Translations under genes and position numbers: made by a program
Shown here: piece by piece, positions 45 through 17,815 of the stretch
How positions within the stretch are numbered: the stretch's first letter is position 1
How the letters are laid out: each line of letters starts with the position of its first letter
Assembly: GCA_028698215.1 (NCBI GenBank)
Contig: JAQVDY010000007.1
Span: forward strand, 6,579 to 70,578
Length of the DNA stretch: 64,000 nt
DNA from: Actinomycetota bacterium
GTDB lineage: Bacteria; Actinomycetota; Humimicrobiia; Humimicrobiales; Humimicrobiaceae
Reading direction: 5' to 3'
The notes under the pieces: generated by a model
Database searches by the model: none
Seen by the model: the letters and a program-made list of their open reading frames with translations, nothing else
Told to the model about the DNA's origin: nothing

Positions 45-329
45 ATGATGCTGGGTAAAGTAATAGGGAATGTGGTTTCTGTCATCAAGGATGAAAACTA
101 TAAGGGGTTAAAACTTATGGTAATCCAGGAAATGGATATGGATGGCGGCTATAAGCCTAATTTCGTAGTAGCGGCTGACCTTATCGGTGTGGGTATAGAC
201 GAAACGGTTATGGTGGCTAACGGTACTCCGGCCAGAGCTACTGAGGAAACCAAAAGCGTAGGCCTGGATTCCATTATAGTGGCTAAAATAGAAAAATTAA
301 TTTTTGAAGATAGGGAATTGAATTTATAA
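45..329 (+). CDS. Bacterial microcompartment vertex protein (BMC-P; EutN/CcmL/PduN family)
   Basis: 94 aa, typical size and composition (GxVxG..., hydrophobic beta-barrel core) of EutN/CcmL pentamer proteins; GGAGGCGGGG RBS upstream; directly followed by a BMC-H gene. Confidence 0.75.
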   Translation: MMLGKVIGNVVSVIKDENYKGLKLMVIQEMDMDGGYKPNFVVAADLIGVGIDETVMVANGTPARATEETKSVGLDSIIVAKIEKLIFEDRELNL

Positions 330-345
330 CAAGGGGTGATTTAGT

Positions 346-615
346 ATGGACGGCTTTGCCATTGGTTTAATTGAAACAAAAGGGCTGGTGGGGTCTATAG
401 AAGCAGCCGATGCCATGATAAAGGCAGCCAGTGTAGAACTTATGGGCCAGGTAAGGATTGGCGGCGGTTATGTTACAGTATTTATAAAAGGCGATGTGGG
501 TGCGGTTAAAGCCGCTATAGAAGCCGGAGCTGAAGCTGCTAAAAGGGTAGGAGAGCTTCTGTCTTCTCATGTGATACCCCGGCCTAACCAGGATTTGGAT
601 ATGATTTATCCATAA
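346..615 (+). CDS. BMC-H hexameric shell protein (PduA/EutM/CcmK family)
   Basis: 89 aa; canonical BMC-domain sequence [32 protein letters not shown]...[33 protein letters not shown]. Confidence 0.85.
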
Positions 616-3216: not shown

Positions 3217-3245
3217 TTATTGCATAATTGCAAGTTATTGCATAA
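3217..3245. promoter_or_regulatory. Candidate operator: direct repeat TTATTGCATAA x2 (18-bp period) containing the palindrome TTGCATAATTGCAA, upstream of the aldolase gene
   Basis: Read directly in the 165-bp divergent intergenic region between the PBP1A and aldolase genes. Confidence 0.3.
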
Positions 3246-3284
3246 AATAAATTATAAATACCAATTAATAAGAGGTGAGCAGTA

Positions 3285-4139
3285 ATGGTTTACATAAATA
3301 CTAAGGATATGCTGATTAAAGCCAGGAAAGAAAAATTTGTGGTGGGGGCTTTCAATATTGTCAACCACACCTCTATGGTGTCAGTAGCAGAAGCAGCCAT
3401 TGAAGAAAGGTCACCGGTAATTATTCAGACTTCCCAAAAAACAGTGGAAGCCTTGGGCTATAAGATGCTGGTGGATATGGCCAAAGACCTGGCCCAGGGA
3501 ACAGACGTTCCCATTTCCATGAACCTGGATCATGGGACCGATATGGATATTATTGAAAACTGTATTGAGCATGGCTGGAGCTCAATTATGGTAGACGGAT
3601 CCAGCCTGCCCTACCAGGAGAATATAGAAATGACTAAAAAGGTAGTGGAAATGGCCCACCAGAAAGGTATTACCGTGGAAGGTGAGCTGGGCCATATAGG
3701 GGGAACCGAGGAACAGGTTTCAGTAGACCAGGAGCATGTAATGTTAACTGATCCCCAAATGGCGGTAGATTTTCAGCAGAAGACCGGCATTGACAGCTTG
3801 GCCGTAGCCATTGGCACTGCCCACGGCCTGTACTCAGGAGAGCCCAGGCTGGATTATCAGCGCCTGGCCAAAATAATGGAGGTTACTGATTTTCCCATAG
3901 TAATTCACGGCTGCTCCGGTTTAAGCCAAGAAGTGCTGGCTAAAATCAGGACTTTCGGAGTATCTAAAATGAACATCTCCACCGAAATCAAGCATAAATA
4001 CATCGACTCCTGCGATTTATACATAAAAGAGCATCCCCATGAGTATGAGCCGGTGAAAAAAATAAACTTTGTAAAGGAAGAAGTAAAAAAACTGGTTAAG
4101 AAATATATTGGTATTTTTGGAAGCGCCGGTAAGGCCTAA
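3285..4139 (+). CDS. Class II ketose-bisphosphate aldolase (Fba/GatY/KbaY family)
   Basis: 284 aa; FVVGAFNI, NLDHG, GELGHIGG and IVIHGxSG motifs of class II FBP/tagatose-BP aldolases; AGGTGAG RBS. Confidence 0.85.
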   Translation: MVYINTKDMLIKARKEKFVVGAFNIVNHTSMVSVAEAAIEERSPVIIQTSQKTVEALGYKMLVDMAKDLAQGTDVPISMNLDHGTDMDIIENCIEHGWSSIMVDGSSLPYQENIEMTKKVVEMAHQKGITVEGELGHIGGTEEQVSVDQEHVMLTDPQMAVDFQQKTGIDSLAVAIGTAHGLYSGEPRLDYQRLAKIMEVTDFPIVIHGCSGLSQEVLAKIRTFGVSKMNISTEIKHKYIDSCDLYIKEHPHEYEPVKKINFVKEEVKKLVKKYIGIFGSAGKA

Positions 4140-4154
4140 CAGGGAGGGATAAAA

Positions 4155-5105
4155 ATTAACAGCTATAAACCAACTTATGAATGTGACCTTCACTGCCATA
4201 CCAACCGGTCAGATGGCAATGATACCCCCAGGCAGCTAATTGTCCTGGCAGCCGGCCTGGGCATGAGAGCCATAGGCATGGTGGATCATGATACCGGGCC
4301 TGTCCTTACCGTAGAAGAAGGGGGCAGCAAATTGGGTATTAAGGAGTTTGCTGCCAGCCGGGGCCTGGAGCTGGTGCTGGGTGATGAATTTTCCTGTGAC
4401 AGCCAGGTGGATGACGTTCACATTATCGGCTATGAGCTGGACTGGGATAGCCCAGCTTTCCTTAAGGAGGTAGAGCGTGCCAAGCAGAGCAAGGCTGATG
4501 CCTACCGGCAGCTATGTGAGGTGCTGACCGAAGAAGGCATGCCCTTAGACTACGGCCAGGACATATTAATATATACAGACCTGCAAGGGATTCAAAGGCA
4601 TAGAACGCCAGAGGAAGTGCAAAGAAAACATATATTTGAAGCTATGGCCAGAAAAGGCTATGCCGCTTCCTGGAGTGAAGCCAAACTTATGGTCAGGGAT
4701 AACCCCCGGCTGAATGTGCCCCGGAAAAAGGTCAGCCCCCTGGAGGCTATAAATATTATTAAAGGCGGCGGCGGCCTGGCGGTATTGGCCCACCCCTACC
4801 TTATAGACGAGCAGGTAGATTCTGAAATACTGGGCAGAGTAACCCGGCTAGAATACATTGATAAACTGATAGAAGCCGGCCTGGACGGCATGGAATCCTG
4901 CTATACTTATGACAAAACTACCTATAAGGGCACGCTCAGCCGCCAGCAGGTTCAGCAGGAGGTAGAAAGCAGGTATAAGGGTAAGGTAAGGTTTTTTACC
5001 GGAGGTTCAGATTACCACAATGATGCTAAAAAAGGGGCGGCTAACCCCAGGCTGATAGGAGAAGCAGGCATCAGCTACCGGCAGTTTAAATCTATTTTTG
5101 CCTAA
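4155..5105 (+). CDS. PHP-domain (polymerase/histidinol-phosphatase-like) phosphoesterase; apparent non-canonical ATT start
   Basis: In-frame DLHCHTNRSDG PHP motif lies upstream of the first ATG (4263). The frame is open from 4140 with no ATG/GTG/TTG. AGGGAGGG RBS at 4141-4148 is followed by ATT at 4155. Later motifs HII, LAHP, GGSDYH. Confidence 0.55.
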   Translation: MNSYKPTYECDLHCHTNRSDGNDTPRQLIVLAAGLGMRAIGMVDHDTGPVLTVEEGGSKLGIKEFAASRGLELVLGDEFSCDSQVDDVHIIGYELDWDSPAFLKEVERAKQSKADAYRQLCEVLTEEGMPLDYGQDILIYTDLQGIQRHRTPEEVQRKHIFEAMARKGYAASWSEAKLMVRDNPRLNVPRKKVSPLEAINIIKGGGGLAVLAHPYLIDEQVDSEILGRVTRLEYIDKLIEAGLDGMESCYTYDKTTYKGTLSRQQVQQEVESRYKGKVRFFTGGSDYHNDAKKGAANPRLIGEAGISYRQFKSIFA

Positions 5106-5386
5106 CCCTTATTAAGGTGTAGCGGCAGGGCATGTATTGGCCTTAACTTTAGCCGGCCAGGATTAAGCAAGGAAGGTTTAATAAAAATATGGCAGGTGCC
5201 GGAACTGTATTTTAATTTGATATAAACATTATTAAATAGTTAAAGCCCGGGTACAAATAGGACAAAACATAGTTGGCTATTAAGTTAAATAATGGTATTT
5301 TTATGTGAAGGGCTTTTAGGGTCCAGAGGCTAGGGGCCGCAGAAGTTTAAATAGAATGGACAAAATTAACGGAGCAAGGAAAAAAG

Positions 5387-6244
5387 ATGGTAAATTTAAC
5401 TAAACTCCAACTAATGGAGCTGCATGAAAAATCTTATCAGGCCAGAATCAATATACTGAAAATGATGAGATTTGGGGAAGGCCATATAGGAGGGGCCTTT
5501 TCCAGCCTGGACATCATGACCGTACTTTATAACCAGATATTAAGGCACAAACCGTCTAATCCCAAATGGGAAGACCGGGACCGGTTCATATTATCTGCCG
5601 GCCATAAATGCCTGGCCTTGTATGCCTGTTTGGCTGACCAGGGTTATTTTGATACTGATGTTTTATGGACCTATAATACTTTGGATACCAGGGTACCCAT
5701 GCATCCGGATGAAAAGGTTTTACCGGGAGTGGAGTTTCCCACCGGCTCTTTGGGGCACGGGCTTCCAGTGGCCAATGGAATGGCTTTAGCCGGCAGGCTG
5801 GATAAAAAGGATTACCGGGTGTTTGTAATTTTAGGCGATGGAGAATGTGCCGAGGGGAGCGTATGGGAGGCAGTTATGGCCGCAGGCCACCATCATCTGG
5901 ACAATGTAGTGGCCATAGTAGACCGTAACCGGCTGCAGGTAAACGGGAGAACCGAAGATATTATGGATACCTCTCCCTTTGAGGATAAGTTTAAGGCTTT
6001 TGGCTGGGAGGTAAAGACAATAAACGGGCATGATTTTCAGTCCATATACCAGGTCTTGTCCCAGGTGCCTTTCTGCAAAGGCAAGCCATCGGCCATTATT
6101 GCCGATACGGTAAAATGCAGGGGGCTGGACTTTGGAGAGGATAAATTTGAGTTTCACCACTGGCATTGCGAGCTGGATAAAATTGATGAAGCCATAGATG
6201 TGGTGGCCAAGAGAAAAAGAGAGGAGCAGGCTAAAATTGGATAA
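5387..6244 (+). CDS. Transketolase, N-terminal (TPP-binding) subunit of a split transketolase
   Basis: 285 aa; GHxG..S, GSLGHGLPVANGMALA, ILGDGECAEGSVWEA motifs. Confidence 0.85.
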   Translation: MVNLTKLQLMELHEKSYQARINILKMMRFGEGHIGGAFSSLDIMTVLYNQILRHKPSNPKWEDRDRFILSAGHKCLALYACLADQGYFDTDVLWTYNTLDTRVPMHPDEKVLPGVEFPTGSLGHGLPVANGMALAGRLDKKDYRVFVILGDGECAEGSVWEAVMAAGHHHLDNVVAIVDRNRLQVNGRTEDIMDTSPFEDKFKAFGWEVKTINGHDFQSIYQVLSQVPFCKGKPSAIIADTVKCRGLDFGEDKFEFHHWHCELDKIDEAIDVVAKRKREEQAKIG

Positions 6245-7187
6245 CAAGGAAACTATATATGAAAATCCCAGAAAGATAATTGCAGATGCCCTGGTGGAGC
6301 TGGGCCAGCAAAACAGTAGGGTTGTTTATGTGTCCTGCGACTCTTCTTTAGGGGCCTCGGGGGGTCCATTTAACCAGAATTTTCCGGAAAGGCATTTTGA
6401 GTTTGGAATACAGGAACAAAACGGCATGGGGGAAGCGGCAGGGTTGGCCATAAGCGGAAAGATCCCCTTTATAGCTGCTTATGTGCCTTTTGTGGCTTTC
6501 CGCTGTTTTGAACAAATCAGGGATGATGTATGCAAGACCAGATTAAACGTAAACATCATGGGCAATAACTGCGGTTTTTCCGTAGGGCCTTTGGGTCCCA
6601 CCCATGTGGTGCTGGAAGATATAGCGGTAATTGGCTCTTTGCCTAATATTACCATTATCTCTCCTGCTGACGGGCCCCAGTACAGGGAAGCTATCTTTAA
6701 GGCCGCACAACTGGAGGGACCGGTTTATTTGCGTGTTCACCGTGAAAAGGCCAGGCGTATCTATGGAGAGAATTACCAGATGCAGATAGGCAAGGGAGAA
6801 ATTTTGAAGCAGGGCAGTGATATTACGGTAGTAGCTACCTCCACCATGGTGGCCAATTGCCTGGATGCAGCGGAAGCCCTGAAGTCTTCAGGCATTGATG
6901 CTGAAGTGATAAACATATCCACCTTAAAGCCTATAGACAGGGAAATAATATTGGGGTCCAGCGCTAAAACCAAAAAGGTGGTTACGGTAGAAGAGCACAG
7001 TACCATAAACGGGTTGGGCAGCATAGTAGCCAACGTGCTGGCTGAATCCGGGCCTGCACCCATTAAAAAAATAGGTATAGAAGATGTTTTTGCGGTAGTA
7101 GGCCAATATCAGGAGCTGATAGAGTATTATGGCCTTACCGGGCCCAGCATTGCCCAGAAGATAGAAGAATTTTTAAATCCAAGATAG
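6237..7187 (+). CDS. Transketolase, C-terminal (pyrimidine-binding/C-terminal domain) subunit
   Basis: Track ORF begins at ATG 6198 (47-nt overlap with upstream gene). TTG at 6237 preceded by GAGGAGCAGG gives MDNKETIYENP..., a typical N-terminus, with an 8-nt overlap. Motifs FGIQEQN, GPTH, transketolase C-terminal domain. Confidence 0.8.
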   Translation: MDNKETIYENPRKIIADALVELGQQNSRVVYVSCDSSLGASGGPFNQNFPERHFEFGIQEQNGMGEAAGLAISGKIPFIAAYVPFVAFRCFEQIRDDVCKTRLNVNIMGNNCGFSVGPLGPTHVVLEDIAVIGSLPNITIISPADGPQYREAIFKAAQLEGPVYLRVHREKARRIYGENYQMQIGKGEILKQGSDITVVATSTMVANCLDAAEALKSSGIDAEVINISTLKPIDREIILGSSAKTKKVVTVEEHSTINGLGSIVANVLAESGPAPIKKIGIEDVFAVVGQYQELIEYYGLTGPSIAQKIEEFLNPR

Positions 7188-7196
7188 GAGGACCCA

Positions 7197-7619
7197 ATGA
7201 AAATTGCAATCGGTTGCGATATTAATGCCAATGACAGGATGCAGGACCTTGTCCAAATATTGGACCAGCAGCAGGTAGATTACAAGGTGTTTGAAGTAGA
7301 CGGGGATTACCCTGATGTAGCGGCGGAAGTAACCAAAGCGGTCCAGAACGGTAGCTATGACCGGGGCATATTGGTTTGCGGAACCGGTATAGGCATGGCC
7401 ATTTGCGCCAATAAATTTAAGGGAATCAGGGCTGCGGTCTGCCACGATATTTATTCTGCCCAGAGATCCATATTATCCAATGACTGCCAAATACTTACTA
7501 TGGGTTCTTTTATAGTGGGCACCAAGCTGGCCCAGGAGATACTTAAAGTTTGGCTGGCCATTGAAAGAACCGGGGGAACCGTGGATAAAGTTAAAAAAAT
7601 TGAACAGTTAGAGCAATAA
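7197..7619 (+). CDS. rpiB: Ribose-5-phosphate isomerase B / galactose-6-P isomerase family (RpiB/LacAB)
   Basis: 140 aa; MKIAIGCD..., CGTGIGMAI.ANK, GIRAA motifs. Confidence 0.85.
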   Translation: MKIAIGCDINANDRMQDLVQILDQQQVDYKVFEVDGDYPDVAAEVTKAVQNGSYDRGILVCGTGIGMAICANKFKGIRAAVCHDIYSAQRSILSNDCQILTMGSFIVGTKLAQEILKVWLAIERTGGTVDKVKKIEQLEQ

Positions 7620-7623
7620 GGAT

Positions 7624-8571
7624 ATGACTTACGATATCAAACTTATGGTAAAGGTAGCCAGCCTTTACTACCGGGAAGGTTTAACCCAGGAAGATATATC
7701 CAATAAACTGAAGATTTCCAAATACCAGGTTAACCGTATCCTAAAAAGAGCGGTAAACATAGGGGTAGTACAGATTAATATTATAGACCCTACCCGGGGG
7801 CTTTCCAGCCTGGAAGAAAAGCTGGAGAAAAAATTCGGCCTCAAACGGGCCATAGTGGTGGAAAATAATGGCTTGTCCGACATTGAGCTTAAAAACAAGA
7901 TGGGCCAGGCAGCAGCAAACTACCTGTTAGAAATCATAAAGGACGGGGATGTAATAGGGGTATCATGGGGCACCACCATCAATGAAGTAATTAACCATTT
8001 ACCTTCCAAGATAAATAAGGAGGTGGAAGTGGTGCAGATAACCGGCGGTATCCACCAGCTGTCGGTTGATTTAAACTGCCATGATATTGCCAGGAGGTTT
8101 GCGGCCAGGTTCGGGGTAAATCCCCACCTGCTGTACGCCCCGGCCATAGTGGATTCCCAGGAAAGCCATGATCTTTTCATAAACGAATCATCAATCAAGA
8201 AGACCACAGATTTCTTTGATAAAATAACCATAGCCCTGGTGGGTATAGGAGCCTTGTTCCCTAAAATGATATCCACACTGATAAAAACCGGGCATATACC
8301 GGCCGGGGATTTGGAGATGCTTAGGGAAGAAGGGGCCATAGGGGATGTTTTTTCACACTTTTTTGATATAGAGGGCCATATTTGTGACAGCAGCCTTTCC
8401 GGAAGGCTGATAGCCATGCCTGCCCATATGCTTCACCAGGTTCCCTATTCCATAGGAGTGGCAGGGGATAAACTAAAGGCCGATGCCATATATGGAGCGG
8501 TTAAGGGCAAGCTTATCAATATATTGATTACAGACAGTAAAGCTGCAGAGCTGGTGCTGAAGAAAAAGTAA
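7624..8571 (+). CDS. SorC/DeoR-family sugar(-phosphate)-binding transcriptional regulator
   Basis: 315 aa; N-terminal HTH (EDISNKLKISKYQVNRILKRA) plus C-terminal SorC sugar-binding domain (GVSWGTT, ITGGI). Confidence 0.8.
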   Translation: MTYDIKLMVKVASLYYREGLTQEDISNKLKISKYQVNRILKRAVNIGVVQINIIDPTRGLSSLEEKLEKKFGLKRAIVVENNGLSDIELKNKMGQAAANYLLEIIKDGDVIGVSWGTTINEVINHLPSKINKEVEVVQITGGIHQLSVDLNCHDIARRFAARFGVNPHLLYAPAIVDSQESHDLFINESSIKKTTDFFDKITIALVGIGALFPKMISTLIKTGHIPAGDLEMLREEGAIGDVFSHFFDIEGHICDSSLSGRLIAMPAHMLHQVPYSIGVAGDKLKADAIYGAVKGKLINILITDSKAAELVLKKK

Positions 8572-8613
8572 TATATGCCAAACAATTTAAATTTATATAG
8601 TTAGGGAGAAAGT

Positions 8614-9582
8614 ATGGCCAAGTTGTCCAAACAAGATAAACTCAATATGCTTAAAACCCTGCTCACTATCAGGAGGTTTGAAGAAAAGACCATCCAGCTT
8701 TACCAAACTGCCAAGATATGGGGCTACTTGCACCCTTATCTGGGCCAGGAAGCGGTAGCAGTGGGAGCCTGCCAGGCCTTGGACCAGGATGATTATATAG
8801 TGTCTACCCACCGGGGTCACGGCCACTGCATAGCCAAGGGAGGAGACCTAAACAAGATGATGGCGGAGCTGCTGGGAAAGAGTACGGGTTATTGCAAGGG
8901 ACGCGGTGGTTCCATGCATATAGCGGATACCGATTTGGGAATACTGGGAGCCAATGGTATCGTGGGGGGAGGTATACCTATTTCGGTAGGGGCAGGTTTC
9001 AGCTGCAAACTGGAGGGCCGGGCCAGGGTAGCGGTTTGCTTTTTTGGGGACGGGGCTGCCAATAACGGGGTATTCCATGAATCCTTGAATATGGCCTCTA
9101 TATTCAAATTACCGGTTATATACATTTGTGAAAACAATCTTTATGCCATTTCCATGTGTTCCCAGTTTTCAGTAGCCTGCGGGGATGTAGCTAACCGTGC
9201 TGCCTCTTATTCCATACCGGGAAAGGTAGTAGAAGGGGATGACCCGGAGCAGGTATTTGATTCAGTAAAGGAGGCGGTACAGGCAGCCAGGAAAGGCAAG
9301 GGACCCAGCCTGATCGAGGCTAAGACTTACCGGTTTACCGGGCATCATCCCAATGACCCGGCAGAATACAGGGAAAAAGAGGAAGCAGACTATTACAAGC
9401 TAAACAAGGATCCATTAAAGAATTATTCGAATCAATTAATTAAGGAAAAAGTTATAAGCAAAACCGCTTATGAAAACATGAACAGGCAAGTCCTTTCAGC
9501 GGTGGAAGAATCAGTAAAGTTTGCAGAAAGCAGCCCGGAGCCTGACCTGGATACTTTTTTGGAGGAAGTAAAGAATATCTAA
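8614..9582 (+). CDS. TPP-dependent 2-oxoacid/acetoin dehydrogenase E1 component, alpha subunit (AcoA/PdhA-like)
   Basis: 322 aa; HRGHGH, TPP-binding GDGA(x)NNG, FICENNLYAIS motifs. Confidence 0.8.
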   Translation: MAKLSKQDKLNMLKTLLTIRRFEEKTIQLYQTAKIWGYLHPYLGQEAVAVGACQALDQDDYIVSTHRGHGHCIAKGGDLNKMMAELLGKSTGYCKGRGGSMHIADTDLGILGANGIVGGGIPISVGAGFSCKLEGRARVAVCFFGDGAANNGVFHESLNMASIFKLPVIYICENNLYAISMCSQFSVACGDVANRAASYSIPGKVVEGDDPEQVFDSVKEAVQAARKGKGPSLIEAKTYRFTGHHPNDPAEYREKEEADYYKLNKDPLKNYSNQLIKEKVISKTAYENMNRQVLSAVEESVKFAESSPEPDLDTFLEEVKNI

Positions 9583-9616
9583 GGGTATTTGCAGTAAGAG
9601 ACGGGAAAGGAAAGTT

Positions 9617-10588
9617 ATGGCAAAAATTGAATACAGGGAAGCCTTAAGGCAAGCAATAATAGAAGAGATGGACCGGGACAGCAGGGTATTTCTAATAGGG
9701 GAAGACATAGGGGTGTATGGCGGTGCTTTCCGGGTATACAAGGGCCTTCTGGAAAAATATGGCCCGGACAGGGTAATAAATACCCCTATATCAGAAGCTG
9801 CAATCCTGGGTGCAGGCGTGGGGGCCGCCCTTACCGGCTACCGCCCTGTTTCAGAAATAATGTTTATAGATTTTACTACCCTGGCCATGGACCAGATCGT
9901 AAACCAGGCAGCAAAAATCAGGTATATGACCGGCGACTGCCTTAATGTCCCTTTGGTAATAAGGACCCAGGGAGGTGCGGGCAGGGGGGTTGCCGCCCAG
10001 CATTCCCAGAGCCTGGAGGCATGGTTTTACCATGTACCTGGACTAAAGGTGGTAATGCCTGCCACTCCTTATGATGCCAAGGGCTTGCTTAAAGCATCTA
10101 TCCGGGACAATAATCCGGTTATGTTTATAGAGCAGAAAATGATCTATTTAAACCAGGGAGAGGTTCCGGAGGAAGAGTACTTGATAGACCTGGGTAAGGC
10201 AGATATTAAAAGAGAGGGAAAAGATGTTACTATCTTTGCCTATTCGGCCATGGTGTTTGAAGCTTTGGCGGCTGCAAAAGAATTAGAAGAAGAGGGTATA
10301 AGCTGTGAGGTTTTTGACCCCCGGACCCTGGTGCCTTTGGATTTACAGGCTTTAGTGGACTCAGTTAAAAAAACCCATAGGCTGGTAGTGGTAAGTGAAG
10401 CCTGCCAGAGGGGAAGCATTGCTTCCGATGTCTGTGCCCGTGTAGTAGACCAGGCTTTTGACTGGTTGGATGCTCCAGTAAGGGTGGTAGCCGGGCTTAA
10501 TACCCCCATCCCCTATAATTCTGCCTTGGAGCAAGCTTCTATCCCCCATAAGGAAGACATAGCCAGGGCAGTAAGGCAATTGATTTAA
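9617..10588 (+). CDS. Dehydrogenase E1 component, beta subunit (AcoB/PdhB-like)
   Basis: 323 aa; transketolase-like pyrimidine-binding and C-terminal domains (GEDIGVYGGAF, NTPISEA, MVF...EEGISCEVFDPRTL). Confidence 0.85.
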   Translation: MAKIEYREALRQAIIEEMDRDSRVFLIGEDIGVYGGAFRVYKGLLEKYGPDRVINTPISEAAILGAGVGAALTGYRPVSEIMFIDFTTLAMDQIVNQAAKIRYMTGDCLNVPLVIRTQGGAGRGVAAQHSQSLEAWFYHVPGLKVVMPATPYDAKGLLKASIRDNNPVMFIEQKMIYLNQGEVPEEEYLIDLGKADIKREGKDVTIFAYSAMVFEALAAAKELEEEGISCEVFDPRTLVPLDLQALVDSVKKTHRLVVVSEACQRGSIASDVCARVVDQAFDWLDAPVRVVAGLNTPIPYNSALEQASIPHKEDIARAVRQLI

Positions 10589-10606
10589 ATTTTTTATTTA
10601 GGTATG

Positions 10607-10621
10607 ATTACAAATTGTAAT
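10607..10621. promoter_or_regulatory. Perfect 15-bp palindrome ATTACAAATTGTAAT between the E1-beta and transaldolase genes (candidate operator)
   Basis: Read directly; lies in a 58-bp intergenic gap immediately upstream of the GGAGG RBS of the transaldolase gene. Confidence 0.25.
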
Positions 10622-10646
10622 TTTTTAACAATTGGAGGTTTTAAAC

Positions 10647-11843
10647 ATGACAACATATGAAAAATCTGCTATGCAGCGACTGTCCGAGACCTCGGAGGAT
10701 ATGGAACTTTGGTGGGATTCTTCTCCGCTGGTATTTGCAAAATGGGCTGCGGGCGAGCTGGAAAATGCGCCTGCAGATAAAAAAGATCTGGCTGCAGCCA
10801 GGTTAAAGAAACTTTATGATAAAGATAATCCCCAGGATACCCTGTTTGACGGAGTTACCACCAACCCCAGGCTTACCAGAACTGTCCTGGACCTTATTCC
10901 CGAACAGGTTGACCCCATAGTGGATAAAATAATTGAGGAAAACCCGGCTAAATCAAATTATGAGCTGGCCTGGGAAGTATATAAAGCTATTACTGCAGAG
11001 GGCACCAAACTGTTCATGCCCTTATTTGAAAAATCAGGATTTAAAAAAGGTTATGTAAGCGCCCAGGTTGACCCCAGGCTGGTTACCGATGTACGGGAGA
11101 TGCTAAGGCAGGCTTTGGTTCTTAAAAAGATATCCCCCAATATCATGGTTAAATGCCCCGGATCCAAAGAGGGCATTTACGTGATAGAGATTTTAAGCTC
11201 GCTGGGAATACCTACCAATGCTACCCTTGTATTTGATGTTCCCCAGGTGGTACAGGTAGCTGAAGCAGTAAAAAGAGGTTACCAGAGAGGACAAGAATGG
11301 GGTGTTGACTATAGCCAGTGGAGGTCAGTTATAACTATCATGATAGGCAGGTTTGAAGCCAGGGAAGCCTATACTGAAAGCGCCAGGAAAGCAGGTATTG
11401 AGCTTACTGAAGAACTGCAGAGATGGAGCGGCGTAGCTATTGCCAAGAAAGCTCACCAGATATTAAATGATCCGGCCAGGGGATACTACAGCAAGCTTCT
11501 GCTTTGCTCTTCCAGGGTGGGGCCCAAGCCTGATGAAGTTATACATATCGAAAAGGTAGCCGGCGGCAATATGGTTTATACCATCAACCCGGAAATGGTT
11601 AGTGACTTTATGAGGATATGCGACCAGAAAGAGCTGACTTGCCAGATGGATGATCCGGTACCAGAAGAAATAATGAGTAAATTACTCCAAGTACCATATT
11701 TTGTAGCAGGCTATGAGGAAGACGGAATAGCAATGGAAGACTTCATCGATCAAGCTGCTTTCCAGTATACCGCGAAGGAATTTGCAGGCTCTATGCAGGA
11801 AATAGAGGAATATGTGCAAAAAAGAAAAGACGCTTTAAAGTAA
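10647..11843 (+). CDS. Transaldolase-family protein (long form)
   Basis: Start set at ATG 10647, 8 nt after GGAGG; the track TTG at 10632 overlaps the RBS. GVTTNPRL and VKCPGSKEG....NATLVF correspond to transaldolase TTNPSL and Schiff-base Lys motifs. Confidence 0.75.
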   Translation: MTTYEKSAMQRLSETSEDMELWWDSSPLVFAKWAAGELENAPADKKDLAAARLKKLYDKDNPQDTLFDGVTTNPRLTRTVLDLIPEQVDPIVDKIIEENPAKSNYELAWEVYKAITAEGTKLFMPLFEKSGFKKGYVSAQVDPRLVTDVREMLRQALVLKKISPNIMVKCPGSKEGIYVIEILSSLGIPTNATLVFDVPQVVQVAEAVKRGYQRGQEWGVDYSQWRSVITIMIGRFEAREAYTESARKAGIELTEELQRWSGVAIAKKAHQILNDPARGYYSKLLLCSSRVGPKPDEVIHIEKVAGGNMVYTINPEMVSDFMRICDQKELTCQMDDPVPEEIMSKLLQVPYFVAGYEEDGIAMEDFIDQAAFQYTAKEFAGSMQEIEEYVQKRKDALK

Positions 11844-11860
11844 AGTCTTAAAAAAGCAAT

Positions 11861-11900
11861 AAGGCCATGCTAATTAGATAAGCATGGCCTTATTTTTTTC
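11861..11900 (+). terminator. Rho-independent terminator after the transaldolase gene
   Basis: AAGGCCATGCT-(9-nt loop)-AGCATGGCCTT followed by ATTTTTTTC. Confidence 0.7.
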
Positions 11901-12011
11901 CTGCCCTAGCCTTAGCTGCCTCTAGCCCCTTTTAAATTATTGGAAACTGTATTAATCTTTAATAATACTTATGCTATTAATTTTTATTATAATACTATCT
12001 TAGGGGTATTT

Positions 12012-13484
12012 ATGAGCGGTAATAATTATTTGGTTTTTGATTTCGGGGCCAGTAATGGAAGGGCTGCAGTATTTGATTATGACGGCAGGAAATTTGAAAT
12101 GGAAGTCACTCACCGTTTTGATAACCGCCCCGTATTTGCTGCCGGTACCATGTACTGGGACATACTGAGCCTTTATGAAGAGCTAAAGGCAGGAATACAG
12201 AAATCAGCATCCAGATATAATAATATAAAATCCATGGGCCTGGATGCCTGGGGAGCCGATTTTGGATTTTTGGATAAAAACGGAAAACTGGTATCTAATC
12301 CAGTGCATTACCGGGACCAGCAGAGGAATCAAGACAGCAGCAAATTGCTTAAGCTAATTGACGCCTTTCATCTCTTTGAATTAGCAGGGTCAGAAGTCAG
12401 CCCCATCTTTGACCTGTTCCAGCTCTTTTCCTTTAGCTTAAACCAGTCACCCGAAATTGAGTGCGGCCGGGTGTATTTAACCATTCCTGATATTTTTAAT
12501 TATTTTCTAACCGGCAAAACTTGCAATGAATGGACCAGGATTACCACTACTATCATGTACAATCAGGTAGAAAAAAAATGGGAAAACAAAATATTGGAGG
12601 CAGTAGGGCTGCCTGCGGACCGGTTTGCCCCCATCATTAAGCCGGGACAAAAGATTGGTAAAATTTCTGGCTCAGTCAGCAGCCTGTTAGGGATAAAGCC
12701 TATTGAAGTAGTGGCCCCGGTTACCCACGATACCCCGTCTGCCGTAGCAGGAATTCCGGTGGACAGTAACCAGGAATGGGCTTTCTTAAGCCTGGGAACC
12801 TGGGCTATTCTAGGTAAGGAAACCTCTCAGCCCATTATAAGCAGGGAAGTCTTTGAGTCAGGATATTCCAATGAAGGAGGGGCTGAAGACAGTAACCTGT
12901 TTATCAAGAATATTACCGGTTTGTGGATTATACAGCAGTGCAGGGAAAAGTGGAACCAGGATGCAGGGCAGAAGATTGCCTGGGACAGCATTATGGAAAT
13001 GGCCCAGCAAAGTGAAGCTTTTGCCGGGTTTATAGATGTGGAAAATCCTGTCTTTGACCAGATTACTTCAGATATGCCCCAGGTGGTAAGGGATCATTGC
13101 CAGGGCTGCCAGCCGGAAAGCATTGGCCAGGTTGCCAGGCTGTTTTATGAAGGGCTGGTCTTAAAGTTTAAGTATGAGGTGTCTGCTTTGGAAAAACTGG
13201 GCGGTAAAAAACTGCAATTGCTTCATTTGATAGGAGGGGGCACCAAGGACCGCCTGCTTTGCCAGTGGACTGCTGATGCCACCGGGATTCCGGTAATAGC
13301 AGGGCCTACGGAAACCACTTCCGTGGGCAATTTTTTAATGCAGCTTAAAGCAGCAGGAGAAATATCCAGCCTTAAGCAGGGGAGGGAAATATCCAGAAAT
13401 TCTTCCCAGATTGTAAATTATTATCCCCAGGACACCGATATCTGGGATCAAGCATATCAAAAATATTTACACATATTTGGCTGA
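12012..13484 (+). CDS. FGGY-family carbohydrate kinase (rhamnulokinase/fuculokinase-like)
   Basis: Start placed at ATG 12012 (MSGNNYLVFDFGASNGRAAVF, as in RhaB N-termini). FGGY N and C domain motifs (DFGASNGR, GGGTKD). Upstream 24 codons of the track ORF lie in an AT-rich promoter region. Confidence 0.75.
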   Translation: MSGNNYLVFDFGASNGRAAVFDYDGRKFEMEVTHRFDNRPVFAAGTMYWDILSLYEELKAGIQKSASRYNNIKSMGLDAWGADFGFLDKNGKLVSNPVHYRDQQRNQDSSKLLKLIDAFHLFELAGSEVSPIFDLFQLFSFSLNQSPEIECGRVYLTIPDIFNYFLTGKTCNEWTRITTTIMYNQVEKKWENKILEAVGLPADRFAPIIKPGQKIGKISGSVSSLLGIKPIEVVAPVTHDTPSAVAGIPVDSNQEWAFLSLGTWAILGKETSQPIISREVFESGYSNEGGAEDSNLFIKNITGLWIIQQCREKWNQDAGQKIAWDSIMEMAQQSEAFAGFIDVENPVFDQITSDMPQVVRDHCQGCQPESIGQVARLFYEGLVLKFKYEVSALEKLGGKKLQLLHLIGGGTKDRLLCQWTADATGIPVIAGPTETTSVGNFLMQLKAAGEISSLKQGREISRNSSQIVNYYPQDTDIWDQAYQKYLHIFG

Positions 13485-14429: not shown

Positions 14430-15458
14430 ATGGATAATAGAAAAAATGAATTTATAGGCGACCTCAAGGCAGGCCATCATATAGAGTCTGTTTTTGCGGT
14501 AAGCAAAAAAGCAGTAAAACAGAAAAAAAATAATGAAGAATACTGCCTGCTGACCCTTCAGGATAAACAGGGTGAAATACAGTCGGTCATGTGGACCGAA
14601 GCTTTTATGGCTGCACCTTCCTTTGGAGAGGGGGACCTGGTAGCAGTTAGGGGAATGGTAACAGATTACCGGGGCAGCAATCAACTGACCATAGATAAAC
14701 TGGACAAAATTAAAAAAAGTAAGGACATAGACTATGCTGACTATATTAAATCCACCCAGAAAGATATTGGCCAGATGTGGGCAGAGTTAAAATCAAAGGT
14801 GGAGGAAGTTAAAAATCCTTATCTCAGGAAGCTATTGGATTTATTTTTTCAAGATAAACAGTTTGAGCAGGATTTCTGCCATGGAACAGCTGCGGTACAA
14901 TACCATCACGCCTACCTGGGAGGCCTTCTGGAGCATACCCTGTATGTTTGCCGGGGATGCGCCCTGATAGCTGAGACTTATCCCAATATAAACCGTGACC
15001 TGCTTATAGCGGGGGCCCTGCTGCACGATGTTGGTAAAATCAAGGAATATGAAGTAGGGCTTATTATCAAGTTTACCGACCAGGGTAAGCTGCTGGGACA
15101 CATTGCTATCGGTTACAGCTGGGTGCTGGAAAAAATTAATTTAATCCAAGGCTTTCCCCCTGATCTTAAAGACAGGATTCTCCATATTATCCTTTCCCAC
15201 CATGGCTACAAGGAATACGGTTCCCCCAAAAGACCCAAAATACTGGAGGCGCTGGTGGTTCACCACGTTGATTATATGGATGCAGAGATTGCAGCTTTTA
15301 ATGAACTGCTTAGTGACCAAAACCAAGACGGTGACTGGTCTCCCTTTTTAAAAAATTTGGACCGGTCGGTGCTGTTAAGAAAACTTGACGAATCCAGCTG
15401 CAACCCCAGCCTGGACCCTGACAGCAATAACGGCACATCACAGGAAGGCCTGTTTTAA
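14430..15458 (+). CDS. yhaM: YhaM-like 3'-5' exoribonuclease (N-terminal OB-fold plus HD domain)
   Basis: 342 aa; OB-fold N-terminus (LVAVRGMVTDYRGSNQLTI) followed by an HD domain (HHAYLGGLLEHT....LLHDVGK, LSHHG). Confidence 0.65.
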   Translation: MDNRKNEFIGDLKAGHHIESVFAVSKKAVKQKKNNEEYCLLTLQDKQGEIQSVMWTEAFMAAPSFGEGDLVAVRGMVTDYRGSNQLTIDKLDKIKKSKDIDYADYIKSTQKDIGQMWAELKSKVEEVKNPYLRKLLDLFFQDKQFEQDFCHGTAAVQYHHAYLGGLLEHTLYVCRGCALIAETYPNINRDLLIAGALLHDVGKIKEYEVGLIIKFTDQGKLLGHIAIGYSWVLEKINLIQGFPPDLKDRILHIILSHHGYKEYGSPKRPKILEALVVHHVDYMDAEIAAFNELLSDQNQDGDWSPFLKNLDRSVLLRKLDESSCNPSLDPDSNNGTSQEGLF

Positions 15459-16831
15459 GACCGGTCTAAAGTAAGTACTGCTTTGGCACAGATCTTGTTT
15501 ACCGGATCCCATACCGTAGACACTTTAGGAGCATAGGAAAGATCAAGCATATACACCTCATCAGCGGTCATCTCTGCAGTGATGGCGGTTGCAAACACAT
15601 CTATTCTTTTGCTGACTTCCTTTTTGCCTGCCATCTGGGCCCCCAATACTCTCCTGCCCCCGCGGTCCACTATAAGGGCAATGGTTATGGGTTCGGCTCC
15701 AGGCAGGGCTTTAACATGGGATGGATAAATTCCAGTAACCTTAACTGCATCATAACCTAAAGATAAGGCTTCCTGCAGCCCTATGCCGGTTTTAGCAATT
15801 TCTATTCCAAAAATTTTATCTATCTTGGTGTTTACTGAACCATTAAAAGATGAATCTGCCCCGGCTGCATTGGCTCCTGCTATCCTGCCGGTTTTAGCAG
15901 CATTATTGGCAGTGGGGATATAGTCATCCTTCCCGGTAACTATGTTTTTTACCGTAGCGCAGTCGCCGGCGGCAAATATATTTAAATGTGACGACTGCAG
16001 CTTGGAGTTTACTTTTATAGCCTTTGCGGGCCCCAGTTCAACTGAAGTATTTTCCAAGAAGCTGGTATTGGGCTTAACCCCTACTGACACAAGAGCCATA
16101 TCCATAGGCAGGTTTACCATTTGCTGATCCTGAAGGACTGCAGCTTCCACAGCGCCGGCACCTCCCTTGCCTTTAAAACTGGTTAACCGGGAGGAAAGAA
16201 AAACCTGTATGTGGTTCTGGTCTAGCAGCTGGGACATTATGTCTGTAATTTCCGGCTCATATTCTCCCAGTATCCTGTCAGCCATCTCTATAATGGTTAC
16301 CCCTATTCCCAGGGAATGGAAAGTTTCTGCCATAAGCAGGCCTATGGACCCTGCCCCCACTATCAATGCTTTACGGGGGTGGTTCTGTTGGATAAAGGTC
16401 TTTACGTTAACCGTATCGGTAACGTTCCAAAAAGAGAAAACATTGCCTGAATTGGACCCAGGCAAATCAATGCTTGCCGGGGAAGCTCCAGTGCATATGA
16501 TAAGGCGGTCGTAACCAATAGCCTGTTTTTGGTTTACCATTACCTGTTTTTGGGCAGTATCCAATGTGGTCACCTTATGCTCCAGCAGTATCCTTATGTC
16601 TCTTTTTTGTTCAAAAAACTGGGGTGTATAAACAAATATCTGGTCAAAATCCTTGATTTCTCCGGTGACATAATAAGGGAGCCCGCAGGAACCGTAGGAA
16701 ATATAGGGGCCTGCCTCCAATACAGTAACTTTAGCTTCGGGGTAAACCCTCTTAGCCTGGCTGGCAGCAGCCAGTCCAGCCACATTACCCCCAATTACCA
16801 CAATATTTTTATATAGTTCTTTTTTATACAT
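15455..16831 (-). CDS. FAD-dependent pyridine nucleotide-disulfide oxidoreductase (NADH oxidase / CoA-disulfide reductase family)
   Basis: 458 aa; N-terminal GGNVAGLAAA FAD fold, redox Cys in SYGSCGLPYY, second Rossmann fold GAGSIGLLMAE, C-terminal dimerisation domain. Confidence 0.8.
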   Translation of the reverse strand: MYKKELYKNIVVIGGNVAGLAAASQAKRVYPEAKVTVLEAGPYISYGSCGLPYYVTGEIKDFDQIFVYTPQFFEQKRDIRILLEHKVTTLDTAQKQVMVNQKQAIGYDRLIICTGASPASIDLPGSNSGNVFSFWNVTDTVNVKTFIQQNHPRKALIVGAGSIGLLMAETFHSLGIGVTIIEMADRILGEYEPEITDIMSQLLDQNHIQVFLSSRLTSFKGKGGAGAVEAAVLQDQQMVNLPMDMALVSVGVKPNTSFLENTSVELGPAKAIKVNSKLQSSHLNIFAAGDCATVKNIVTGKDDYIPTANNAAKTGRIAGANAAGADSSFNGSVNTKIDKIFGIEIAKTGIGLQEALSLGYDAVKVTGIYPSHVKALPGAEPITIALIVDRGGRRVLGAQMAGKKEVSKRIDVFATAITAEMTADEVYMLDLSYAPKVSTVWDPVNKICAKAVLTLDRS

Positions 16832-16956: not shown

Positions 16957-17781
16957 ATGGAAGAAGATATTAAGAAAAAATTGCAGCAGGCGGCCAAAGC
17001 CATACGAATCAATATCATAGATATGCTCTGCCAGGCTGGCTCCGGCCATCCCGGGGGAGCATTGTCCATGTCTGATGTATTTGCTTATCTTTATTTTAGC
17101 GGAGTATTAAACATCGATCCGGCCCAGCCCCGCAAAAAAGACAGGGACCGGGTAGTGCTATCCAAGGGGCATGCCTGCCCAGTACTTTATTCCACCCTGG
17201 CTGAAAAGGGCTATTTTGATAAGTCTCACCTGGGGACACTGCGAAAATTTGGCAGCATACTCCAAGGCCATCCTGACATGAATAAAACTCCCGGGGTTGA
17301 TATGAGTACCGGCTCGCTGGGTCAGGGCCTGTCCTGTGCGGTGGGCATGGCTTTAGGGGCTAAGCTGGACCAGCAGAATTTAAGGGTATTTGCCATAGTG
17401 GGCGACGGTGAATGCGAAGAAGGCCAGATTTGGGAAGCAGCCATGGCGGCAGCCCATTACCGGCTGGATAACCTTACAGTGGTAGTGGATAAAAATGGCC
17501 TGCAGATTGATGGTTTTACCAAGGACATAATGAGCAGCGAGCCTTTGGCAGAAAAGTGGAGGGCTTTTGGCTGGGAGACATTAGAAATAGATGGACATGA
17601 TTTTGACCAAATCGATATGGCGGTCAAAAAGGCGCAAAATACAAAGGGCAGGCCAACTGTTTTAGTGGCTACCACTGTAAAGGGCAAGGGAGTGGATTTT
17701 ATGGAAGGTATCTGTGACTGGCACGGCCAAGCTCCCACACCAGAGCAAAAAGAGAAAGCAATAGAATGTTTGAACCAATAA
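16957..17781 (+). CDS. Transketolase N-terminal subunit (second copy)
   Basis: 274 aa; same motifs as the 5387 gene (GHPGG, GSLGQGL, VGDGECEEGQIWEA). Confidence 0.85.
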   Translation: MEEDIKKKLQQAAKAIRINIIDMLCQAGSGHPGGALSMSDVFAYLYFSGVLNIDPAQPRKKDRDRVVLSKGHACPVLYSTLAEKGYFDKSHLGTLRKFGSILQGHPDMNKTPGVDMSTGSLGQGLSCAVGMALGAKLDQQNLRVFAIVGDGECEEGQIWEAAMAAAHYRLDNLTVVVDKNGLQIDGFTKDIMSSEPLAEKWRAFGWETLEIDGHDFDQIDMAVKKAQNTKGRPTVLVATTVKGKGVDFMEGICDWHGQAPTPEQKEKAIECLNQ

Positions 17782-17815
17782 TAAATATATTAAACTTAAA
17801 TTTTAAGGAGTGGGC

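Follow-up and report, generated by a model that had tools for sequence, protein, structure and literature searches.

Gene content and organization of the locus

The window analysed here, a stretch of 64,000 nucleotides of contig JAQVDY010000007.1 from an uncultured actinomycete, contains ten same-strand genes, from a class II ketose-bisphosphate aldolase gene to an FGGY kinase gene (Table 1), as retrieved by open reading frame (ORF) listing and profile searches against Pfam and NCBIfam. These searches confirmed all genes named in a preliminary description of this DNA, namely those for the class II aldolase, a PHP phosphoesterase, a split transketolase, RpiB, a SorC regulator, an E1 alpha/beta pair, a long transaldolase and the FGGY kinase, all encoded on the forward strand. 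That description had counted nine consecutive genes; nine is the number ahead of a terminator, the total being ten. Annotation was performed gene by gene for positions 45-21742 and by scans of larger ORFs together with precomputed Pfam calls for the remainder of the window.

Genes 1 to 9 (3285-11843) form one operon, because the gaps between them are tight, a single conserved element lies upstream and one strong terminator closes the series; the kinase gene is a separate unit past this terminator. Indeed, successive genes of the operon overlap or are 4 to 58 nt apart, the sole exception being 281 nt between the PHP gene and the gene for the transketolase N subunit. The rho-independent terminator that had been noticed after the transaldolase gene is real, as it consists of a 14-bp stem (11858-11894), a 9-nt loop and a U-run; its folding energy, -22.2 kcal/mol (z = -5.2 versus shuffled sequences), was equalled by none of 200 shuffles. 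The upstream element, with its three TTGCA repeats, occurs once in the window and also precedes the first operon gene, coding for either the aldolase or triosephosphate isomerase (TIM), in the related loci L010, L030, L009 and L005; it was not found ahead of the transketolase N gene. This element, a candidate operator that would coincide in part with the promoter, may be the binding site of the SorC regulator.

An Rfam search of positions 1-22000 for riboswitches and leader RNAs returned zero matches, and the 281-nt gap (5106-5386) folded no better than shuffled sequence. The same four relatives carry a TIM gene where the window has this non-coding region, and a weak TIM-like remnant of 14 amino acids was found at 5273-5314 (E = 1.8). 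The TIM gene may have been deleted from the window operon at this place.

Table 1. Features of the operon and of its surroundings in the window (BMC, bacterial microcompartment; HTH, helix-turn-helix; ThDP, thiamine diphosphate; PDH, pyruvate dehydrogenase; FSA, fructose-6-phosphate aldolase).
Feature	Position	Strand	Basis and remarks
Class II ketose-bisphosphate aldolase (PF01116)	3285-4139	+	Pfam 310.7 bits
PHP-family (COG0613/TrpH-like) metal phosphoesterase	4155-5105	+	Pfam PHP 29.6 bits, cutoff 26.4
Variant split transketolase, N (ThDP-binding) subunit	5387-6244	+	Transketolase_N 166 bits
Variant split transketolase, C subunit	6237-7187	+	Lacks equivalents of E. coli His461 and Glu468-Asp469 (GNNCGFSVGPLGPTHV)
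RpiB-type sugar-phosphate isomerase	7197-7619	+	LacAB_rpiB 136 bits
SorC-family sugar-phosphate-sensing transcription regulator	7624-8571	+	Sugar-bind 243 bits, N-terminal HTH
ThDP-dependent dehydrogenase E1 alpha (PDH/acetoin-dehydrogenase type)	8614-9582	+	E1_dh 292 bits
E1 beta subunit	9617-10588	+	Transket_pyr and Transketolase_C; NF006667 416.8 bits, above cutoff of 321
Long transaldolase/FSA-fold Schiff-base enzyme, 398 aa	10647-11843	+	TAL_FSA 116.8 bits
Intrinsic terminator	11858-11899	+	Closes the operon
Promoter/operator-like element with three TTGCA repeats (TTATTGCATAATTGCAAGTTATTGCATAAAAT)	3217-3248	+	32 nt, upstream of aldolase gene
FGGY kinase, rhamnulokinase/fuculokinase type	12012-13484	+	FGGY_N and FGGY_C; separate unit with its own AT-rich upstream region
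Second, canonical split transketolase	16957-18784 (N, 16957-17781; C, 17810-18784)	+	Motif THTGITVGEDGATHQ
Class A penicillin-binding protein 1A (PBP1A), 832 aa	620-3118	-	Pfam (transglycosylase, transpeptidase, PASTA); between shell operon and module
BMC-P and BMC-H, last two genes of a six-gene shell operon	45-615	+	EutN_CcmL and BMC domains

Variant transketolase and transaldolase-fold proteins

The split transketolase of the operon lacks residues that define canonical transketolases. In an alignment that included human transketolase, its C subunit reads GNNCGFSVGPLGPTHV where the solved split transketolase 6yaj reads ATHAGLTVGEDGASHQ. The canonical motif TH-x-G-x-x-x-GEDGPTHQ, containing His461, Asp469 and His473 in the E. 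coli enzyme, is replaced by NNCGFSVGPLGPTHV, in which His473 is retained. In all 32 module transketolases of the related loci described below, the His461 equivalent is Asn or Asp and the Asp469 equivalent is Leu; Moorella has Ser at the latter position. Aligned with the canonical paralogue of the window, the variant keeps the ThDP-binding motif GDGECAEG, the motifs GEGH, AGH and MHP, and both arginines equivalent to Arg358 and Arg520 of the E. coli enzyme. In the E. coli enzyme, Asp469 lines the acceptor site, the importance of D469 and S385 is documented, and replacement D469T shifted acceptance toward non-polar aldehydes (PMC5073344). The best solved relative of the module C subunit (273 bits) is the split transketolase of Carboxydothermus hydrogenoformans (PDB 6yaj; PMC7661550), which shares the architecture of two genes for an N and a C subunit but possesses the canonical HAGLTVGEDGASHQ motif.

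The canonical split transketolase, encoded 5 kb downstream of the operon, outscores the operon enzyme on the family models. In addition, canonical orthologues share an operon with the variant in Thermosediminibacter, Thermovorax and a metagenome-assembled genome (MAG) of the Tepidanaerobacteraceae. Because a canonical transketolase coexists with the variant, a distinct substrate is indicated rather than drift.

A similar departure characterizes the transaldolase-like protein, which falls far below the cutoffs of all NCBIfam transaldolase models. Its best solved relative reached only 49 bits, with SAQVDP aligned to SIEVDP of the Corynebacterium glutamicum enzyme. The AlphaFold 2 model (predicted local distance difference test score of 83) adopts a transaldolase fold, with a template-modelling score of 0.69 to the transaldolases of Neisseria gonorrhoeae and C. 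glutamicum; no solved transaldolase is more than 19-21% identical to it. Of the residues expected for a canonical TalB/Tal enzyme, the Schiff-base Lys, the Asp equivalent to Asp17 and the phosphate-binding Arg are retained within this TIM-barrel fold (MVKCPG, WWDSSP and IGRFE conserved). The catalytic Glu (E96 in E. coli TalB) is replaced by Gln, however, and the residue three positions before the Arg, Phe178 in TalB and Tyr131 in FSA, by Met. Both Gln and Met are invariant in the family members of the related loci (56 of 56), as well as in the proteins of Thermoanaerobacter wiegelii and Moorella. According to PMC13259622 (citing Stellmacher 2015), a Gln/Thr/Tyr set marks fructose-6-phosphate aldolases and a Glu/Thr/Phe set transaldolases, the Glu of TalB positioning the catalytic water. 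The protein resembles FSA in that FSA has the same fold, Schiff-base Lys, Asp and phosphate-binding Arg, and Gln where TalB has Glu96. Of the FSA triad Gln59-Thr109-Tyr131, the Gln is present and so is the Thr (in TNATLVF), but the proton-shuttling Tyr is an invariant Met, and the protein counts 398 amino acids with extra helices compared with 220 for FSA. Judged by these aligned residues, the family matches neither the FSA nor the TalB catalytic set. Hundreds of homologues were found, the closest ones originating from uncultured Actinomycetota, including Candidatus Humimicrobiia.

Aldolase and phosphoesterase

The aldolase scored above the cutoff of the general ketose-bisphosphate aldolase model (TIGR00167) and below the equivalog cutoffs for both fructose-bisphosphate aldolase (FBA) and tagatose-bisphosphate aldolase. 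Solved relatives likewise gave close values (AgaY, 209 bits; Thermus FBA, 202 bits), so that, on scores, specificities for fructose bisphosphate and tagatose bisphosphate are indistinguishable.

The gene next to it codes for a PHP-family protein whose metal-binding DLHCHT motif lies in frame upstream of the first ATG, and no ATG, GTG or TTG occurs ahead of this motif (4140-4262). ATT at 4155, located 6 nt after a GGGAGGG ribosome-binding site, is most likely the start codon. The start position is ATG in L030 and ATC in L010, which suggests that a weak start codon is conserved for this gene. The Pfam PHP cutoff was reached only by the full-length protein including this N-terminus. The best NCBIfam models were those for RNase RNM and 3',5'-nucleoside bisphosphate phosphatase, with 73-75 bits against cutoffs of 375-400; hence, the protein has the PHP domain but does not belong to the COG0613 equivalogs for nucleotide bisphosphate phosphatase/RNase AM. 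Its gene always adjoins the aldolase gene, in both Actinomycetota and Bacillota, and it is the most conserved protein of the cassette between these phyla (53-63% identity). It is proposed to be a sugar-bisphosphate phosphatase.

Isomerase, regulator and E1 subunits

The RpiB-type protein scored 133.2 bits on the RpiB subfamily model (cutoff 135) and 125.8 bits on the D-erythrulose-4-phosphate isomerase model (cutoff 240) of NCBIfam. The best NCBIfam model for the SorC-family regulator was that of a Bacillus subtilis-type DeoR (262 bits, cutoff 420); its gene occupies the same position in 20 related loci. E1 alpha reached 374.7 bits on PDH_E1_alph_y (cutoff 393.85) and 208 bits with human PDH E1 alpha. 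On profile scores, RpiB and E1 beta thus appear ordinary, unlike the transketolase and the transaldolase-like protein.

The E1 subunits resemble AcoAB and PdhAB in being ThDP-dependent subunits of the heterotetramer type that score near or above PDH E1 cutoffs. Moreover, an E2 gene is adjacent in a second type of actinomycete locus and in Desulfobacterales. They differ from AcoAB and PdhAB in that the E1 genes are placed between the SorC and transaldolase-fold genes and lack E2 and E3 partners in the window type of locus. Indeed, no E2 homologue was detected in the window by tblastn with the E2 of L006, and a complete 2-oxo-acid or acetoin dehydrogenase complex, consisting of E1, a lipoyl E2 and E3, was not found there. 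A flavoprotein gene at 15455-16831 on the reverse strand was considered as a candidate E3 and rejected, the protein being CoA-disulfide-reductase-like (368 bits, versus 137 bits for lipoamide dehydrogenase).

Conservation in related genomes

A scan of one genome per species with the transaldolase-like protein yielded 55 loci, which were compared by BLAST with the window proteins and by clustering of flanking ORFs. About 40 uncultured actinomycetes of the Humimicrobiia type carry the operon, usually with the PBP1A gene as its neighbour, whereas the core of transaldolase-like, variant transketolase, RpiB, PHP and aldolase genes reappears in Thermoanaerobacter, Thermosediminibacter and Moorella. 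Among the Actinomycetota, the window type of locus comprises the PBP1A gene on the opposite strand, the aldolase and PHP genes and/or a TIM gene, and the genes for transketolase N, transketolase C, RpiB, SorC, E1 alpha, E1 beta and the transaldolase-like protein. The core order from transketolase N to the transaldolase-like gene occurred in about 20 loci, and the opposite-strand PBP1A gene in ten, a synteny that indicates vertical inheritance. In a second actinomycete type, genes for a GntR regulator and a sugar ABC transporter precede those for a xylulokinase-like FGGY protein, E1 alpha, E1 beta, the transaldolase-like protein and a lipoyl E2. The Desulfobacterales carry genes for a class II aldolase/adducin-domain protein, an alpha/beta hydrolase, the transaldolase-like protein, E1 alpha, E1 beta and E2.

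Carriers among the Bacillota include the cultured T. wiegelii, Thermosediminibacter litoriperuensis, Thermovorax subterraneus and Moorella glycerini. A gene for a PAS-domain sigma-54 activator precedes the cassette in the first two of these species, in which the genes for the transaldolase-like protein, the variant transketolase, RpiB, PHP and the aldolase, optionally with one for a HAD phosphatase ahead of PHP, form a sigma-54-dependent operon. Three Bacillota loci (L047, L048 and L052) hold a minimal unit only, namely the transaldolase-like, PHP and aldolase genes. The cassette is therefore real and conserved, and it is centred on the transaldolase-fold protein, whose partners are either the aldolase plus PHP or the two E1 subunits. 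The database names of homologues of the transaldolase-like protein, transketolase C and PHP are generic only, and no description of the cassette turned up in the literature or in database names.

The Bacillota cassette is often followed by genes for a canonical transketolase, a dihydrodipicolinate synthase (DHDPS)-like protein, a 2-hydroxyacid dehydrogenase and LarA-like proteins. In the T. wiegelii locus L067 (CP002991, 1731921-1752940) and in L050, for example, the DHDPS-like aldolase, 2-hydroxyacid dehydrogenase and LarA-like genes trail the cassette. These trailing genes hint at 2-hydroxy or 2-oxo acid metabolism.

In one MAG (CAYPYW01; loci L017 and L043), two transaldolase-like paralogues are encoded on different contigs, neither directly beside an E1 pair; in L017, an E2/E1 beta pair lies 8 kb away on the other strand. 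In close relatives of the window (L009, 11316-20733; also L008, L010, L011, L012, L020, L025 and L030), the transaldolase-like gene is followed by genes for LacI, a corrinoid protein and an MttB-family methyltransferase, and then for a sugar-type binding protein, an ABC transporter and a uroporphyrinogen decarboxylase-like protein. The window has the FGGY kinase gene at this place. A methyl-transfer system next to a sugar-type transporter is an odd mix.

Proposed role of the operon

The nine genes may represent a SorC-controlled operon for a dedicated, non-canonical sugar-phosphate rearrangement that is independent of the shell genes nearby, an interpretation that is considered about equally likely to hold or to fail. 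In a first step, the class II aldolase would join dihydroxyacetone phosphate and an aldose phosphate into a ketose 1,n-bisphosphate. The PHP phosphoesterase would then take off the 1-phosphate, which would make this step irreversible, as is the case with fructose-bisphosphatase and sedoheptulose-bisphosphatase, and would free the C1 hydroxyl that both ThDP-dependent and Schiff-base transferases require. The variant transketolase would transfer C2 units and the transaldolase-fold enzyme C3 units between sugars, and RpiB would interconvert aldose and ketose phosphates. Finally, E1 alpha/beta would link this pool to a C2 unit (acetyl, hydroxyethyl or glycolyl) by cleaving or ligating a ketol or 2-oxo substrate, and SorC would repress the whole carbon-shuffling operon. 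As the operon includes a phosphatase, commitment of a bisphosphate to the monophosphate is easier to reconcile with it than catabolism driven by a kinase. Because the transketolase lacks both a substrate-contacting Asp and a phosphate-site His, and the transaldolase-like protein its acid-base residues, at least one intermediate is probably not a standard metabolite of the pentose-phosphate pathway; it could be a deoxy, a short-chain or a differently phosphorylated sugar. Candidate substrates that were considered are 2-deoxyribose 5-phosphate, hydroxypyruvate and 1-deoxy-ketoses, along with the capture of formaldehyde (XuMP-like) or acetaldehyde.

This interpretation agrees with the earlier statement that the genes do not form a standard pentose-phosphate operon, which is supported by the residues lost from the two transferases, the canonical transketolase 5 kb away and the conservation across three phyla. 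Non-oxidative pentose-phosphate operons (tkt-tal-rpi), of which the actinobacterial tkt-tal-zwf-opcA-pgl cluster is an example, likewise combine a transketolase, a transaldolase-fold protein and an rpi-type gene in a stable position, and the RpiB of the window is nearly canonical. They differ from the module in having a transketolase with His461 and Asp469 equivalents and a transaldolase with the catalytic Glu and Phe. Furthermore, the module adds the aldolase, PHP, SorC and E1 alpha/beta, contains neither zwf nor pgl, and has its canonical transketolase encoded separately.

Several observations weigh against a dedicated rearrangement pathway. The operon holds no transporter, glycosidase, sugar isomerase or dehydrogenase that would point to a particular substrate. 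A ribulose-phosphate epimerase gene was absent from all neighbourhoods examined, E2 and E3 do not accompany E1 in the window type of locus, the flavoprotein near the E1 genes of the window is CoA-disulfide-reductase-like, and no earlier example was found of a COG0613-type PHP enzyme with a sugar bisphosphate as substrate. Some or all of these genes could also be housekeeping, because the scores of RpiB and E1 beta reach or approach the cutoffs of the ordinary enzymes, relatives have TIM in the operon, and central glycolytic operons are controlled by SorC-family regulators, CggR among them.

A wider claim is more tentative and is regarded as doubtful, namely that the cassette, with E1 alpha/beta as an addition, represents a central pathway not described so far, which anaerobes of at least three phyla would share. 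Such a pathway would process a non-standard sugar phosphate or would be a carbon-conserving cycle, with C2 units exchanged with the sugar-phosphate pool by an E1-type ThDP enzyme instead of phosphoketolase, and would comprise a new class of PHP sugar-bisphosphatases. The module is widespread in uncultured Actinomycetota from subsurface environments and digesters, and occurs in cultured thermophiles as well. The cassette is assembled from known enzyme families. If the variant residues reflect a new substrate, the operon would mark an uncharacterised branch of sugar-phosphate metabolism, with three activities for which no characterised counterpart was found: a transaldolase-fold enzyme with neither known acid-base residue, a transketolase that naturally lacks the Asp targeted in engineering to alter acceptor range, and a PHP-family phosphatase paired with an aldolase.

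Alternative explanations

The explanation that survives best besides the dedicated rearrangement, although unlikely, is an ordinary central-carbon operon, in which a housekeeping aldolase of glycolysis and gluconeogenesis, enzymes of the non-oxidative pentose-phosphate pathway and a PDH E1 are governed by a CggR-like SorC repressor and the odd residues result from drift. The stable place beside the PBP1A gene across genomes, with all genes similarly diverged, would be expected in this case, as would TIM in the operon of relatives, an E1 beta above the cutoff of its PDH subfamily, an RpiB that is 2 bits short of its own, the flanking SurE, YhaM-like nuclease and Apt genes, and an operon without a transporter or substrate-specific enzyme. 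However, a canonical transketolase is encoded 5 kb away, and in Bacillota in the same operon as the variant, and the loss of the transaldolase Glu and of the transketolase Asp469 and His461 equivalents is invariant across three phyla, which argues against drift. Every NCBIfam transaldolase model being far from its cutoff, a PDH-type E1 without E2 or E3, and the PAS-domain sigma-54 activator over the cassette in Thermoanaerobacter and Thermosediminibacter, a regulator typical of conditional pathways, point in the same direction.

Alternatively, the operon could encode a carbon-conserving cycle of the non-oxidative-glycolysis or bifid-shunt type, as such cycles are reportedly organized; this is improbable. 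E1, with the lipoyl E2 where present, would replace phosphoketolase and convert fructose 6-phosphate or xylulose 5-phosphate into a C2-CoA unit plus erythrose 4-phosphate or glyceraldehyde 3-phosphate, whereupon the transaldolase-like protein, transketolase, RpiB, TIM, aldolase and the PHP bisphosphatase would remake fructose 6-phosphate. The enzyme classes of the operon match such a rearrangement set except for the epimerase, and a phosphatase beside the aldolase and TIM in relatives would be explained. Similarly, the position of the transaldolase-like gene between those for E1 beta and E2 in the second actinomycete type fits the handling of erythrose 4-phosphate, and xylulokinase-like FGGY genes would feed some loci. 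To our knowledge, however, no E1 alpha/beta cleaves ketose phosphates physiologically. The E1 of the window looks PDH-like, its type of locus lacks E2, E1 itself is absent from the Bacillota cassette, there is no epimerase, and the altered transketolase and transaldolase residues are left unaccounted for.

The preliminary description had proposed the catabolism of a rare (deoxy-, sulfo- or branched-) sugar through a kinase, an aldolase and C2/C3 transferases, with an aldehyde entering an adjacent microcompartment. This is very unlikely, and its microcompartment part is largely refuted. The Leu in place of the transketolase Asp recalls the D469T replacement that favoured non-polar aldehydes in the E. 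coli enzyme (PMC5073344), and relatives often encode sugar ABC transporters, LacI regulators and FGGY kinases next to the module. Moreover, a rhamnulokinase/fuculokinase-like gene follows the operon. The designation of its product as rhamnulokinase-like is acceptable only as a likeness, as the protein scored 336.9 bits on the rhamnulokinase model (cutoff 527.95) and its best solved relative is a fuculokinase (FucK 4c23, 263 bits; RhaB, 218 bits). On this score it does not qualify as a RhaB equivalog, and neither a rhamnose isomerase nor a PF00596 aldolase was found in the window. Orthologues of this kinase occur near the module in only four loci; other loci carry unrelated xylulokinase-like FGGY genes, and the related loci together have three different FGGY types or none. 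The kinase is thus not a conserved module member and, as noted, lies outside the operon. The specialised split transketolases SqwGH (sulfoquinovose) and AptAB (apiose) share the arrangement of separate N and C genes with the module enzyme, but partner genes of these pathways, namely those for a sulfosugar isomerase and reductase or for an apulose kinase and an apiose-specific binding protein, were not seen in the window.

As for the shell genes, which had been described as being next to the module, they lie within 3 kb of it but are separated from it by the opposite-strand PBP1A gene, on which their operon converges. The complete shell operon comprises five tandem BMC-P genes and one BMC-H gene, without BMC-T, four of the BMC-P genes being located upstream of the window (L065, 8882-10571). 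In published loci, the usual number of pentamer genes is one or three. BMC-H is of a generic kind, similar to the EutM/PduA hexamers. The search for cargo enzymes over 10 kb to each side of the shell operon was negative, the 10 kb upstream encoding GltX, acetate kinase, IscS/NifU/TusA, a toxin-antitoxin pair and a lectin-like protein. Genes for aldehyde dehydrogenase, phosphotransacylase and deoxyribose-phosphate aldolase (DERA) were not found in these 10 kb or in the window, annotated gene by gene up to 21742 and by larger ORFs and precomputed Pfam calls beyond. In a Pfam census of 128 flanking genes of Actinomycetota loci, the shared families included no cargo family, such as aldehyde dehydrogenase, phosphotransacylase, DERA or PF00596 aldolases; recurrent among these genes were sugar-binding proteins, LacI, ABC ATPases, FGGY kinases, MttB/corrinoid proteins, TIM and E2. 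The aldolase families that release volatile aldehydes into microcompartments are PF00596 and PF01791; PF01116, to which the operon aldolase belongs, is not one of them and its members release phosphorylated aldehydes. Compared with solved relatives, the module proteins are of ordinary length, RpiB being a plain protein of 140 amino acids, which leaves no room for encapsulation peptides.

The conserved linkage between module and shell genes that a neighbourhood comparison might have revealed was not seen either. In the 55 related loci, shell genes beside the module occur only in the species of the window and its close relative L009, and about 45 of the 47 non-identical loci have none; a lone BMC-H gene lies 7.5 kb from the module in L006 and L007. 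With a shell-only locus, no cargo enzymes, a separate operon and no conserved linkage, the microcompartment link, and with it the idea that an aldehyde released by the aldolase accounts for the shell genes, was rejected. The adjacency of module and shell is incidental, and PBP1A is the truly syntenic neighbour.

Comparison with sugar-phosphate-utilizing (SPU) microcompartments leads to the same result. These are defined by DERA and an aldehyde dehydrogenase, accompanied by RPI and at least three BMC-P proteins, with BMC-H and BMC-T as further shell proteins (Dwyer 2024, PMC11585597; Sutter 2021, PMC8217296). The locus resembles them in its multiple BMC-P paralogues and in an RpiB-family gene and a class II aldolase gene within a dozen genes of the shell genes. 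However, DERA (the SPU signature enzyme, PF01791) had no match in the scanned window genes or the 10 kb upstream, aldehyde dehydrogenase, phosphotransacylase, PduS and BMC-T are lacking, and RpiB belongs to a separate operon. Proximity rules (at most 12 genes from a shell gene) would miscount the module operon as BMC cargo.

Finally, a funnel for tetrose phosphates is the least probable explanation. RpiB would serve as a D-erythrulose-4-phosphate/erythrose-4-phosphate isomerase in erythritol or threitol catabolism, the transketolase would act on a C4 ketose phosphate or glycolaldehyde phosphate, and the aldolase and PHP (via sedoheptulose bisphosphate) together with the transaldolase-like protein would pass erythrose 4-phosphate to central metabolism. 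The second-best family of RpiB (125.8 bits) is indeed that isomerase, the erythritol pathway is reportedly built of TIM-like, RpiB-like, SorC-family and FGGY genes, and the loss of a substrate-contacting Asp and a phosphate-site residue may suit a shorter acceptor with its phosphate on C2; but RpiB is far below the DerI cutoff of 240 bits and nearly at that of ordinary RpiB, the surroundings of the module show no conserved gene for a polyol dehydrogenase or of the EryB/EryC type, and the role of E1 is unaccounted for.

Other genes of the window

Downstream of the kinase gene, the window encodes SurE, a YhaM-like nuclease, the CoA-disulfide-reductase-like flavoprotein, the second split transketolase, an ORF of 504 amino acids and Apt. 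There is an 8-nt overlap between this ORF (18777-20291) and the stop of the canonical transketolase C gene. Considered as a possible operon member, it was rejected; no Pfam domain was assigned to it, M3-family oligoendopeptidases matched only weakly (29 bits), and its sequence contains an HExxH-like motif, HEGGH. Further downstream, two PolX-type genes are found less than 6 kb from each other, both coding for helix-hairpin-helix, polymerase beta and PHP domains, at 56353-58077 on the reverse strand and at 61143-62888 on the forward strand.

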